A stretch of 64,000 nucleotides of DNA from Eledone cirrhosa (lineage: Eukaryota), in contig OZ024755.1 of assembly GCA_964016885.1 (NCBI GenBank), positions 14,880,001 through 14,944,000 on the forward strand. The letters are read 5' to 3'. Below the pieces are notes generated by a model that was given only the letters and a program-made list of their open reading frames with translations, was not told the DNA's origin and did not search any database. Made by a program: the position numbers and the translations under genes. Shown here piece after piece: positions 8,155 to 61,070 of the stretch (the first letter of the stretch is position 1; each line of letters starts with the position of its first letter).

Positions 8155-8199
8155 TCAAAATATACCAAAGGAATATAATAGACAAATTCCATAGGGCTG

Positions 8200-10835
8200 A
8201 AAATCAGAGACATGAGGGCGACCGAACAGTTAGCAGCTTCTATCCCGGTCGGCCGCCCTCAAGTCTGTGACACACTGATAGCACATATGAAGCAACTAAA
8301 AACAGTAATATGTGTCACATATAGGACGCCTGATACCCCCAGTCATGAGGATAGCCTCAGTAGCATAGAAGAGGTCCTTGACAAACTCGACCAGGGTCTC
8401 ACCATTCTACTGCTGGGAGACTTAAACCTGCCAAAGGGCCACCTCTTCCCTGGAATGACGTCAATAGAACAGAGACAGACGAAGTTCCTGCTGGCCCTCA
8501 CACACAGGCTGTTCATGGAACAAGCAGTACTCCTCCCAACAAGAGGCGAAAATGTCCTGGACCTCTGTTTTACAAACAACGAAGTGCTCATCCATAATGT
8601 AAAGGTGACTCCAACAATGTTCTTGGATCATAACTTAGTAGAACTAATGATATCTGGTCCGAGAGAACCTACAGAGACACAACCATCAAGAAGCACCGGG
8701 ACGTTATCCAGCCTTAACTTCTACAAGGCTAACTGGAAAAAGATCAAGAGAGAAATCCGGAAGCATACATGGAGCGAAAATACCGCCACACAAGACACCA
8801 AAACTTCATGACAACGATACACACTATATGCAAAAAGGGCCAACAGACACAAACATTTTATTCCTAGAAATAGGAAAATCCTTATGGGACGAAGAACCAA
8901 GCTCTCAAACCAGTTGAATGCACAACAAGAAAACAAAAACAAGAAGGAATCCTATTTGAAACGTGCACTACTTGACACAGCGATTGCACTCAAACTTTCC
9001 CATGAAAATGAGAGGGCAAAGAAAGAAAGCAGGGCCATAGAAAATATTAAAACAAAGCCTAAGGCCTTCTTTAAATTTGCAAAAGAGACTGCCTCGGTAC
9101 ACTGCAAGATTGGGCCACTCTTCCATACAGACGGTTCATTAACCGAGAATCCCCAAGAGATATGTGAAATACTGAACGAACAGTACAAAAGTAGTGTGTT
9201 CACATGTCCACAACAAAGCCAGAGGAGTTATTTGATGCCACAACACTACATGAAGATATGGCGACCATTAACTACATAGACATAACGGAGGAGGATGTGG
9301 TATGCGCCGCAGATGAAATTAGAACAGACTCAGCTGCTGGACTCCCAGTAGTCCTCTTAAAAGCGTGTAAGCGGGCCTTAGCAACTCCACTGAAGATGCT
9401 CCTGGGCTAGCAGTATACTACCCAGGGAGCTGAAAAAAGGCACGATATGCCCTATCCATAATGGAGGTAGTAGAGTGTAGGCCAAAAATTATAGGCCAGT
9501 CTCCCTGACTTCGCATATCAGTAAGGTGATGGAGCGAGTTGTCAGAAAGAAACTGATCACTTTTTTCGAGGAGCATGGCTTTCGCCCAGGAAGAAGCTAC
9601 CTTACACAGCTGCTACATCACAACAACTGCTAGACAGCTCACATGTGGACGTGATATATCTTGACTTTGCGAAGGCCTTTGACAAGGTCGACCACGGAAT
9701 GATATGTCACAAACTACACGGACTCGGCATAACTGGAAAAGTAGGTGAGTGGTTGCATGACTTATTAAAGGACAGAAGCAGCAAACGGGGGCCTTTCAAA
9801 GGAAACATTTATAACAAGTGGAGTGCCCCAAGGGACAGTTCTGCGACCACTACTGTTTTTGGTGGCTCTCTCAGACATTCCCTCTGTAGTACATACAACA
9901 ACATCCCTCACTAGCTATGTTGATGACACTAAGGTAGCACAAGCAATCAAAAACCCGGCTGACGCTACCCTTTTACAACAAGATTTGATGCCATATACAA
10001 ATGGGCGGAAGAAAACATGCAGATTAATGCTGGCAAATTCCAAGCCCTACAATACGAACCTGCAAACACAAATACAGTACAACACAGTTACGCAGGACCA
10101 CGAGGGACCGTTATCCCCGTGTCAAAATCGATACGAGACCTGGGTATAGACATGAGCGATGATGCATCTTTTTCCTCACACATCATGAAAGTGGCGACAA
10201 TGTACAGACGACTCGCTGGCTGGATCTTGAGGACTTTCCGGACAAGAGACCGTGGCACCATGTTGACACTATGGAGGACATTTTTCCTAAGCCGCCTGGA
10301 CTATTGCTCCCTGTTGGTGTCACCCCATAGTGTCAAACTAACCACGGATCATGAGGCGATCCACCAAGGGGATTGCACGATGAAGGAGAAAATCTACTGG
10401 GAGAGGCTAAAATAACTAAACCTCTACTCCTTGGAACGAAGACGTGAGAGATACGCAGTGATCTACATGTGGAAAATCCTGGAGGGACTAGCACCAAATT
10501 TTGGCATTAGGAGCTGGAGCAACCGTTGAACAGGACGTCACTGTGTGGTGCCAAATTTCCCGTCTTCCACATTTAGAATAAGGAGCAGATACTGTAATAG
10601 CCTGGGTTTCAAGGGCCCTCAACACTTCAACAAGCTGCCGAGGGATCTGAGAGATCTGCATGGTGTGGAGGTCGATGTCTTCAAGAAACATCTCGACACC
10701 TTGCTATCCAGGATCCCGGATGAGCCCACAGCAAGGCATAAGCGAAACCTAAGGGCAGCAGCAACAAAATCCCTCTTACACCAGTGGCCAACCAATACAG
10801 GCTGCAGATAAAATGTGTAGCAACAAGGGCGGTAA
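8200..10835 (+). mobile_element. Decayed CR1-group (jockey-like) LINE ORF2: AP endonuclease plus reverse transcriptase, many frameshifts
   Basis: Motifs in correct order: LLLGDLNLP, PTRGENVLDLCFTN, DHNLV; NYRPVSLTS, YLDFAKAFDKVDH, PQGTVL.PLLFL, YVDDTK, RDLGI, YWERLK..L.SLERRR, FKKHLD..L..IPDEP; ends in (TA)n. Confidence 0.93.
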
Positions 10836-56235: not shown

Positions 56236-56267
<32 letters not shown>

Positions 56268-56389
56268 GAAGATGAGTAATATTGTAGAACAATAAACTAT
56301 GCATATATCAGATAAGTAGCACTCAACAGTTGGTAGAACTGGTGTATATATTAAAGAAGAAATGAAAAGATGGTTAAAAAAGTTCCATA

Positions 56390-56459
56390 TATTTTATTAT
56401 GCGCATTTCGAAAACAATATCATCCTGGGACAAAAATTGTGTTCTCATCAGATAAAATA
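56390..56459 (-). ncRNA. Type I hammerhead ribozyme, intact core
   Basis: Minus strand: tattttat-CTGATGA-gaacacaat ttt tgtcc ca ggatg atattgttttc-GAAA-tgcgca-TA-ataaaata. Confidence 0.88.
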
Positions 56460-56594
56460 AGGTAACATGATATGAGGTCTAAAAAGACTTTCAACAGGAA
56501 AGTGCAAAGTCTACATATACTCTTATATTTCTGTCATATGTAGACTTTGCACATTCCTGTTGAAAGTGTTTTTAGGCCTCATAATATGCTACCT

Positions 56595-56664
56595 TATTTT
56601 ATCTGATGAGAACACAATTTTTGTCCCAGGATGACGTCGTTTTCGAAATGCGCATAATAAAATA
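56595..56664 (+). ncRNA. Type I hammerhead ribozyme, intact core
   Basis: tattttat-CTGATGA-gaacac...gttttc-GAAA-tgcgca-TA-ataaaata; helix III palindrome atgcgcat. Confidence 0.88.
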
Positions 56665-58353
56665 TATGGAACTTTTTTAACCATCTTTTCATTTATATAT
56701 ATGTGTGTGTATGTGTGCGTGTGTGTGTGTGTGTGCGTGTGTGTGTCTGTGTCTGTGTGTGTGTCTGTGTCTGTGTCTGTGTGTGGGGGTGGGGTGTGGG
56801 GTGGGGGGTGGGGGGGTCTATGTATGTACACAGATATGAATGTGTGGTTTTGTATTTAGATTTTTGGGGCTTTTCTATTTGCGCTCACACAAGATTATAT
56901 TTCCACCCCTCTGAACAATGCAGAATTGATTGCAACAATCCTGGGATTAATATTTTAATGTTAATACGGTTGATTGAAACGCTCGATTAAATCTAAAGTT
57001 CTAACTCGATGTGTTTCTAGGTTTAACATTTAAAACTTCAGTACAAGAGGACTTCAGCTATTATAGCAAGTATTTGAACGTTATTAAACTGATTTAATAA
57101 TGTAGTTGTTCTCTCATCGGAAATCTATCTTTAAAAGAAGTCACGCACAACTGCTGACTTGAAGGGCAGTTTTAATCAATTGCGACTGACTGAGATTTTA
57201 CATAAATGTATGACTACATCTATGTGAATGCCTGCGTATATATACGAGTGTATGTGCCCATATCTATGAGCGTGTATTTACATTGTTAAAGGACATATTT
57301 ACTTTATGTTTCATTCCCAATTCAAATTATATCACCAAAACATGTATATGGTATTTCAATGCACTGCTACAGTCACGTAATAGTAAAATCTTTAGTGAAC
57401 AACATTGCAATTGACACGATGAATATTCTTTAGAAAATCTCTTGAAATAACTTCTAAAAGATTTGCGTTTCCACTTTCGTTTTTACTGTAAACCACACTT
57501 AATTGGACTCTTGTTATTGCTAGTTTAACATTGACGTTACCTTCAGTAGCAGCAACGCCCTATTAATATATTCCGTTGGTCATTACATAGTAGAGCAATT
57601 AGCGTGTTTAATCTCTAGCTGGCCATATAACGACCATTATATCATCGTTAATAAATTATCCTGTTTGATATTCACAGGTTATTTCTCGTAGCTTTGAGCA
57701 TGTGCTGCAACGAACATCTGTAATACTGTTATAGATATTCCACTCACTCACATTATATGTTCCCTCTAACACAACCTGCTCGTAGAATTTAGATAGTTTC
57801 GAGATTTTGCTTCGTGATTAATCTCTTAATTAGTTTAGTTTCGGGGTATTTACACTGGTCAGTGGCATTGCTTGACGGAGTGTCTATTTGTGTAATGTGT
57901 AAGAATACATGTGAATTTTATATATGTAAATGTATGAATATATATATATATATATGGGAGTGTGTATGTACAGATTAAGGTGTTCATGACAGTGTGAAAT
58001 GAAGAGTTCAACGTACTGTTCATATATGTATTGCTTGATATGGCTTTAGGAGAAAACTATTTTTGTCTCTTTATCTAATTAGAATACGTACGCAAGTGTG
58101 AGAAACCTCTACGTGATTACATGTGAGCGAATATGTGATTCTATGTATGTATATAAGAAGGTACAGAAAAATATAGTATTCTAGTAATACATTGATATAT
58201 AATAGCCTTACAATATGAGAATGTGCGTAAATTTTCAGACACATTTCCAATCAAGCTGTTTCCTGAAGGACTGAATCTAATAACCTTAAGAGACATATTT
58301 TAGCAAATTTCACTATTTCAAAAGGCACTACATTATCCTTATTATTATTATCC

Positions 58354-58580
58354 AGGGCAGTGAATTGGTAGTATCGGTAGATGGTCGGGCGCCATGCTTT
58401 GCAGCATAGAGTTACGGCCCTTATGATCTGAGTTCAAATCCCTCCGAGGTTAACTTTGCCTTTCATCATTAAGGGGTCGATAAAATAAAGTACCACGCAG
58501 GCATTGGGTCGATGTAATCGATTTCACCGCCCTCAAAATTGCTGTACTTGTGCCTATATTATTATATTACCATTATTATA
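58354..58580 (+). mobile_element. Family-B SINE
   Basis: Colinear with the 35365 copy, including the B box and ggggtcgataaaataaagtacc. Confidence 0.85.
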
Positions 58581-59049: not shown

Positions 59050-61070
59050 CTTTCTTTATTTGCCACATTACAAGACTTGACGGGGGGGGGTTACATAAAA
59101 ATCATATAACTTTAACATTAATAAATAACAATAAACTATACATAATAAAATAACAATTGAAATCCCGAGTAGGGAGGAACGTTAGTGCAGTGTTGTTTTA
59201 CACCCCATGGATAGAACAACCCTCAACACCAAGAACACTTTTTGTAGGTGTTCCCGTCTTCCCTCTGTTTATCTTCCTCAACCAATAGGTTTATATACAG
59301 AGAACGCCCATTCACTCGGGCCATTTTCACCAAAATCACCCACGTTTCAGCGAATTTACTGGGGTGTAGCACCTGTCTCTCAACTCTCACCTACCTTCTG
59401 AAGTGGTACTTAAAGAAGGGGATAAGTTGTTGTCCGGAGAGAAAGCTGTTTGCCCTCAGTCCTTATTACCTCTTTCGCCATAGCCACCAAACAGAGGAAA
59501 ACCGTCTCTTATTCTTAAATGAAGGCGGCAGGTTGACCCACACGATGGACCCGGCTGACAACTGGATGCGTCCCACACGTGACAGTAGCTGTTCGACATA
59601 ATTCCACAGGTCGGTCACCCATGGGCACTGAACGATTGCTTGCAGAACGGTTTTGATGTCCTGCTCGTATCTTGGACAGGTCCTTTTTACAGGATCTCTG
59701 CCAGGACATCCGTAGCCTGTAGATTTAGTCTCGAACTGGTAGAGCTCGTGGGTATCACTGCCGGGCCAGAGACATCTGAAAGTTACCCATAGGCCCTGGA
59801 CGGAAAGTCCTCCCGAACAGACTGGTCAGTTCGTCCTCCTCGATGCCTAGAGTTTCCCCGAGAACGTCGTCGCATTTATCCTCCACTAATCCCCTATAGA
59901 ATGTCAAAGAGGAGTCTCCACTGATTGCCGTTTCCGCTTGCTAGAGGGCTGTGAGCGCCTGAAGGCACTCAAGGTGCCAGGCACCATTTTCGGTCTTCGC
60001 TTGACCCAGGACTGCACCTCTGTTAGTGAGACGAGTTGTGGAAGAGCTTGTCTCACAAACTACAGCCACACCGATTCACCGGTCAGGAATACCAGGAGAT
60101 GGCGTAGCCTCAGCGCGTGTTTGCGCATCATCAGCCACGGCATGCCCAGCCCTCCGTTAGAAGGGTGTTGACAGCAGATGGATCTCCTCACCGATGGAGC
60201 TTGTTTCTTCCACATGTACTTGAAGATTAGGTTTGAGGTTTTGGCGGGGACAAGGCATGACTGTCAAGCGGTAGTAAATGACGGACGCTATGTAAGTGTT
60301 CACCACCTCCGCTCGACCTGTCAAGGAGAGTTTGCACTCAGCCCACTTCTGGGTGAGTGCAAACACCTTCGCCGTGACCTCGTTCCAGTTCTTGTCCACC
60401 TGGAGGTCAGGACCAAACAAAACCCCGAGTAATTTCACCGGTGCTTCCGTCCAGCGTTTAACGACACTGTCGGAAGGTATGGGTTTGCCTCTCCATGTGC
60501 CGAGCTGCAAACTGACAGACTTGTTTGGGTTTAGTCTTGCTCCTGTCAACGTTTCGTATTCCTGTAATAGGTTGCCGATTACCCGATTTCCGAGGTTTTC
60601 GACACTATTACGGTTATGTCGTGGGCATAGGCCGACGCTGCTTTCCGCAGTCCTGGTTCGATCGGGATGCCCTGCAACAGCTCCAACTTCCGCAATAATG
60701 GCTCGAGAGTCAGTACATACAGAATTGAGGAGAGAGGGCATCCCAGACGGATGGAACACATGATTTGGAATGGCTCCGATAGGTAGCCATTGACCTTGAC
60801 TGCCGAGCAGATGTTGCTGTGCATGGCAGCGATGGTGGTGTGCATTGCAGCCTCTGAAGACGGGATCGAAGCCGGCCGCCTTGAGACCCGCCTCCAACTA
60901 TTGATGGTTGACCCTATCAAATGCCTTAAACTGATCTAAATTGATCACAGCCCCAGCAAAGCCATGTTTTCAACCTTACCTCTCTATAATGTATCGCATG
61001 AGGTGGAGGTTGTCGTGTATGGACCTGGTCGGGATTGAACACGTTTGAGCTCCCCTACAAGGTTCTCGAC
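59050..61070 (-). mobile_element. Decayed, 5'-truncated Tx1/L1-clade LINE ORF2 (reverse transcriptase) with 3' UTR
   Basis: LDQFKAFDRVNH, VKVNGYLSEPF, IRLGCPLSSILYVLTLEPL, SAYAHDIT, GARLNPNKS, VKLLGV, LSLTGRAEVVNTY; frameshifts and stops. Confidence 0.9.

Follow-up and report, generated by a model that had tools for sequence, protein, structure and literature searches.

A 335-nt hairpin at positions 56360–56694 of a 64,000-nucleotide stretch of the Eledone cirrhosa genome (hereafter the window) is best read as two 5′-truncated 3′ ends of a Penelope-like retroelement (PLE), lying head to head in a (TA)n microsatellite, likely derived from one insertion and carrying hammerhead ribozymes that are predicted to be trapped in duplex. 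We put the probability of this reading at about 0.88. Sequence comparison assigns both arms to the 3′ end of a PLE family, and the locus is a retroelement scar of a common kind, probably dead.

The inverted repeat is formed by two 159-nt arms (56360–56518 and 56536–56694) that are 94% complementary, with 9 mismatches between them and 17 nt separating them. A motif scan recovered in both arms, outward from the centre, an 8-bp A-U helix I, CTGATGA, a long helix II, GAAA, a palindromic ATGCGCAT helix III and a UA site. The C3 positions of the two hammerheads are 56603 (+) and 56451 (−), and from the sequence cleavage is predicted after A56656 on the plus strand and, by symmetry, after 56398 on the minus strand. 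The inverted hairpin with two complete, outward-pointing cores described in the original prediction is therefore real, and each core is of type I with the palindromic, dimer-type helix III of Penelope hammerheads, as had also been proposed. Folding of the 335 nt gave a single hairpin of −236.8 kcal/mol (z −33), and none of 100 shuffled sequences was as stable; an Rfam scan of the window at the gathering threshold returned no match.

The two arms do not end alike. What had been described as a 17-bp loop (56519–56535, +) proved to be the right arm's own element sequence: other copies match hairpin query positions 159–335 contiguously with 94–96% identity, so the 17 nt are the 5′ extension of that arm, unpaired in the hairpin, with the junction at 56518/56519. 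The same 17 nt also stand upstream of the arm in copy L017. To the left, the element reaches beyond the hairpin via a 97-nt tail (56263–56359, −), which adjoins the left arm only and shows 92.9% identity with the 97 nt immediately behind the pLTR in copy L063. The tailed left arm (56360–56518, −) is a 5′-truncated element 3′ end, or pLTR, 90.8% identical to that of the long L069 copy; its type I hammerhead (56390–56459, −), found by the motif scan, is the less damaged of the two and has helices I and II in its predicted fold. The right arm (56536–56694, +), recognized from the inverted repeat and the motif scan, is likewise a 5′-truncated 3′ end, without a tail, and its type I hammerhead (56595–56664, +) has an intact core and a damaged helix II. 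On the left the structure is bordered by the (TA)n target microsatellite (56238–56264), as family ends are elsewhere, and on the right by a (TA)n/(TG)n microsatellite (56695–56786); a target-site duplication is not readable in these flanks. Among open frames of at least 90 AA in the window, a size at which short exons would be missed, inspection by eye revealed only decayed RT-like LINE pieces, namely LINE-like endonuclease and RT fragments at 8182–10808 (+) and 59469–60935 (−).

The arms belong to a large family. A DNA search of the species' own genome (3.0 Gb) yielded 80 matches from the 40 scored of 2020 candidates; about 30 places matched nearly the whole hairpin and 10 matched query positions 159–335. 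A 36-nt stretch of the hammerhead has at least 511 exact matches in the genome and a 30-nt stretch of the tail, taken just left of the hairpin, has 606, with no match for either reversed control. Wider flanks were examined around ten family places, and the stretch corresponding to 56263–56359 was common to most hairpins, on one side only and with (TA)n outside it. In tandem copies this tail lies between the hammerhead region and the 5′ end of the ORF; in the partial tandems L063 and L066 it runs on into that end. Copy L017 reads, in order, (TA)n, tail, inverted 3′ end, junction, truncated RT-endonuclease ORF, 3′ UTR and hammerhead. Its ORF retains, in broken frames, a YRDD RT fragment followed by a YIG-bearing domain, and all family ORFs that were read are broken. 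An Asn-rich stretch lies between RT and endonuclease at L017:4400–4650 and may be compared with the N-rich inserts in rotifer Penelope ORFs (PMC3846280).

The family RT fragment retrieved 15 homologues of 671–833 AA (best E 3e-91), and these full-length proteins share both the RT and the GIY-YIG-like parts. The succession of RT and GIY-YIG that marks EN+ PLEs is thus found in family copies outside the window, where the Pfam GIY-YIG match itself is weak (E 0.0095–0.011, below cut-off); a PDB search using homologue P0002 gave no match. Type I hammerheads occur in the pLTR of family copies besides those of the window, and tandem and inverted pLTRs with a one-sided tail, the arrangement characteristic of PLEs, are present in the family, the inverted arrangement in L017, L064 and L069. 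Two other structures were seen in the same material: a near-perfect 4.4-kb palindrome (97.7%) at L060:1030–5401, bounded by more diverged subfamily ends with a tail on one side, and, in L061, L062 and L084, internal 5′ inversions that leave the 3′ end in single copy, resembling those of L1 twin priming.

Within the PLEs, sequence motifs make the Hydra clade the likely home of this family. That clade is described as having DKT, a CxCX5C linker, no CCHH pair, CxxC and CxH around the conserved E and N, and (TA)n targets (PMC8557442). The linker is present as CNCPIRTNC in L017, L020 and L068; DKT replaces DKG, as SDKT in L069 and L066 and as SNKT in L063; a single Cys, and no CCHH pair, lies between the LVY and YIG words; CNLC precedes the E and CNH follows the N. 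By inspection, the window flanks and most family loci show insertion into (TA)n. The placement is likely rather than proven because the RWK motif is matched in part: an N-terminal RLRW is followed by I in L063 and by V in L066, the two Eledone copies read, whereas Hydra elements have RWK (PMC8557442) and the homologues RWK or RWR.

The mirror layout is frequent in the family. Our first sample comprised 45 loci from the first matches to the hammerhead 36-mer on C1 (C1 total, 62). The inverted partner spanned the hammerhead in 12 of these, was partial in 4, was a tail stub only in 8 and was missing from 21, so that 24 of the 45 loci had an inverted end; in none was there a tail on both sides. 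Such sampling is biased towards loci with two hammerheads, which have two chances of being matched. The second sample consisted of the first 100 listed of the 606 tail matches. An inverted 3′-end partner lay within 1.4 kb in 57 of these 100 tailed copies and no partner was found within that distance in 43; two whole hammerheads were present in 17. When a tail was sought on the partner in the 57 pairs, none (0/57) had one. Junctions in these pairs, classed approximately from BLAST ends, overlapped by 1–4 nt in 17, were blunt in 5, had a gap of 1–30 nt in 21 and lay far apart in 14. The 5′ ends of the tailed arms are scattered, some falling inside the tail and others as far as hundreds of bases into the element. 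The tail-less arm extends further 5′ in 43 of the 52 partners that reach the 3′ end (it is shorter in 7 and level in 2), a count inflated by tail-only stubs, which make it true by construction. The 16 hairpins most like that of the window have 15 distinct centres; the exception is a pair, L010 and L016, which lie 51 kb apart with an identical centre. As the junctions differ, the hairpin has not been amplified as a unit and was probably formed anew at each insertion. In one hairpin, L014:1500–1839, both arms share changes absent in the other 15, pointing to a separate subfamily or to arm-to-arm conversion.

PLEs typically carry an inverted, 5′-truncated copy and a tail on one side (PMC8557442), and we propose the following origin for such a structure. 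The RT-endonuclease of the element would nick both strands of a (TA)n target, and each nick would prime reverse transcription on the element RNA. A distal start would yield the tailed arm and a proximal start the tail-less arm; both cDNAs would stop early, and their ends would be joined, often via a few shared bases. The hammerhead would be carried along as part of the pLTR, and the inserted copy would later decay, probably neutrally. The two-primer step is inferred from patterns seen in the genome and from in vitro work on a different clade, Poseidon, in which the purified PLE protein, a predicted dimer, cuts and extends both target strands, and reverse transcription starts at two sites with the tail as the interval between them (PMC11167929). 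In its full form, with a dimeric RT-endonuclease priming two opposite-strand cDNAs at one (TA)n from RNA starts 90–100 nt apart and with their ends joined, the proposal is tentative, and we rate its chances a little below even.

Several features of the window and the family agree with it. Two starts on opposite strands, as proposed, would account for a tail never being found on both arms and for the tail-less arm often reaching further 5′. Both arms of the window carry C at 56690, a letter present in 3 of 108 arms, and such a shared rarity would suit one RNA template. Each arm also has sequence that the other lacks, the tail on one side and the 17 nt on the other, so neither is a simple fold-back copy. 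Family-wide, the tail asymmetry favours two separate priming events over fold-back. If the two-primer reading is true, the both-strand, two-start result obtained in vitro (PMC11167929) would be tied to genomic inversions and self-priming would be displaced as the main PLE inversion route; our literature search, subscription papers aside, found no paper making that link.

Self-priming is the explanation favoured for head-to-head PLE inversions by Arkhipova 2013 (PMC3846280). It keeps the PLE origin and derives the inversion from snap-back, with one cDNA or antisense template folding back at a short palindrome and serving as its own template, and we regard it as rather unlikely here. Seven of the first 100 listed tailed arms (L111, L178, L168, L147, L051, L011 and L073) begin at offset −122/−123, at a CATATG palindrome that lies some 122 nt 5′ of the cut and is likely a truncation or fold-back hot spot; L111 and L178 have short local fold-backs there, and the left arm of the window terminates about 2 nt from this site. 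Sister arms are also closer to each other than arms of different copies, differing by 3.6% on average in 26 pairs (half of them selected by likeness to the window, and with L007 missing from the pair table, probably via an 88% identity filter) vs. 5.5% in 1514 between-copy comparisons, which fits the two-primer model too. Yet a fold-back of the tailed strand cannot give sequence lying 5′ of its own end, and the tail-less arm does lie further 5′, by 17 nt in the window and in 43/52 of the pairs. Nor can a fold-back of the tail-less strand give the tail without a further template switch. Two-primer insertion and self-priming may both operate. That the hairpin is no more than an assembly or library fold-back we consider to have a negligible probability. 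Perfect palindromes are a known long-read artefact, and public reads, which match family-wide at 90% likeness, included none across the window junction. Against this stand the 9 mismatches between the arms, the tail on one arm and the 17-nt extension on the other, and the recurrence of the layout at dozens of loci with different junctions; the palindrome is, as originally argued, no library fold-back.

Mobility of the hairpin itself, as a MITE-like or retrozyme-like unit amplified as a palindrome, is highly improbable. Near-complete matches to the 335 nt exist at 30 or more places, and L010 and L016 share one centre, as such a unit would predict, but 15 centres among 16 hairpins, a tailed arm with the variable 5′ end noted above, and asymmetric ends with one tail in place of terminal inverted repeats all speak against it. 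A MITE, with its fixed centre and symmetric termini, was rejected on the number of centres and the one-sided tail. A non-LTR retrozyme was also rejected, as retrozymes are tandem direct repeats (bioRxiv 10.64898/2026.07.22.740005) and the hairpin is an inverted pair with one copy per strand. We also consider it very unlikely that the locus has been co-opted as an auto-inhibited ribozyme or as a source of dsRNA for ADAR or Dicer. A read-through transcript would, by fold prediction, form a duplex of about 159 bp, the catalytic cores are intact in both arms, and rotifer PLE copies yield small RNAs (PMC3846280). The arms, however, differ from each other at 9/158 positions, whereas the left arm differs from the other-chromosome copy L017 at 6/158; they have drifted apart and were not kept matched. 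Changes in the right arm hurt helix II, and 17 of the first 100 listed tailed copies have the same layout. Across 183 arms, substitution rates in GAAA (2.1%) and in helix III with UH (3.3%) are similar to that of the 3′ flank (2.7%), columns 77–112 being left out because many loci were chosen by exact match there and the rates are biased. The special auto-inhibited ribozyme of the original prediction thus found no support, and the locus is a by-product of PLE insertion like many others.

Rare letters number 6 in the right arm vs. 3 in the left, and one of the former, C56638, gives an A-C mismatch in helix II. The right arm, which had been named for assay, is the more damaged of the two, and the ranking of the hairpin as the best candidate in the window for retained activity found no support. 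Fold probabilities, which are equilibrium predictions without tertiary contacts or protein, gave for the left arm alone a pairing of 0.24–0.28 in helix I and 0.41–0.67 in helix II, and for the right arm alone 0.004–0.005 and at most 0.002, respectively. On either strand of the complete hairpin, helices I and II had a predicted pairing of 0.000, in agreement with the earlier expectation that the long duplex would prevail over ribozyme folding. The outward orientation of the arms implies that, in a read-through transcript of either strand, the antisense arm is synthesized before the sense ribozyme, which would pair with it on emerging; with only one sense hammerhead per read-through transcript, no cis dimer can form. 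A transcript starting at the hairpin centre would escape antisense-first pairing, and a locus transcribed through would be a possible ADAR or Dicer substrate. Single minimal hammerheads (min-HHRs) of PLEs showed no cleavage and dimers low cleavage (PMC4209133), and the PLE ribozyme is reported to be protein-dependent and dispensable for in vitro insertion (PMC11167929).

Arm starts were examined for a footprint of in vivo cleavage. None of the first 100 listed tailed arms starts within 2 nt of the cut site, where chance alone would place about 1.7 given that 40 of them begin no more than 60 nt from it; the count of 0 indicates no cut-site enrichment and is no proof of depletion. A search for an ADAR footprint in integrated copies showed no excess on the sense strand (A>G 35/5885 vs. 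T>C 60/7522).

Other repeats in the window were recorded alongside the hairpin. A type I hammerhead at 36604–36853 (core +36756) has a 63-nt stub, 36604–36666 / 36791–36853, that is 100% complementary, (TA)n flanks and a tail-like stretch on its right; by sequence it probably represents a sister PLE family built in the same way. At 49441–49641 a hammerhead core (+49545) lies within an 84% inverted repeat with 93-nt arms 15 nt apart, probably the 3′ end of a PLE accompanied by an inverted fragment. A 130-nt unit is directly duplicated (99%) between (TA)n/(TG)n tracts at 55824–56083, and three diverged copies (75–82%) of a short repeat, which may be SINE-like, occur at 54298–54700 and 58418–58562, two of them inverted 131 nt apart.

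Opposite-strand hammerhead pairs are already published: truncated PLEs have been given as the source of dual min-HHRs lying 100–700 bp apart on opposite strands (PMC4209133). Only one point here is mildly new, the tail asymmetry seen across the family, and a statement of it as evidence on how PLEs insert was not found in our literature search. Mirror-image hammerheads are to be expected in animal genomes from PLE insertions, which is a warning for ribozyme scans. The family provides a large natural sample for the question of how inverted PLE ends form, and its long hairpins could feed RNA editing or small-RNA pathways where transcribed.

In L1 twin priming, two primers act at one target and the products are joined by a microhomology-type join. 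The proposed Eledone insertion would be alike in both respects; the two differ in that the segment inverted by twin priming is internal and the 3′ end stays single, whereas the Eledone arms both copy the same 3′ end. The min-HHRs of PLEs (PMC4209133) share with the Eledone hammerhead the type I topology, a long helix II, the G10.1-C11.1 pair and a palindromic helix III suited to dimers, and differ from it in that the Eledone hammerhead lacks the extra nucleotide between A9 and G10.1 and has a longer (8 bp) helix I. Non-LTR retrozymes, as described in bioRxiv 10.64898/2026.07.22.740005, are likewise non-coding, PLE-derived and equipped with a type I hammerhead, but they are direct tandem repeats with hammerheads able to dimerise in cis, in contrast to the inverted Eledone pair with one sense hammerhead per strand. 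With the Hydra-clade PLEs of PMC8557442 the family shares the C-terminal GIY-YIG-like domain, (TA)n targets and a hammerhead near the 3′ end, and Penelope-13_HM of that clade (supplement of the same paper) also has an inverted copy, truncated at its 5′ end, whose hammerhead lies on the opposite strand. The Eledone tail is longer (97 nt vs. the 30–40 bp quoted for PLEs in PMC8557442), as is the longest copy read (about 3.3 kb vs. ‘generally <3 kb’ for Hydra PLEs). Its hammerhead, with a long helix II bearing a large loop and an 8-bp all-A-U helix I, is unlike every Hydra row of File S2 (PMC8557442), Hydra-1_oBim included, and the family therefore appears to be unlisted in that file. A similar arrangement is found in Adineta vaga Penelope (PMC3846280), in which head-to-head copies are also accompanied by a tail on one inverted pLTR and by an unequal inverted copy; in the window the long arm, too, is a pLTR fragment, and only the two inverted ends remain.
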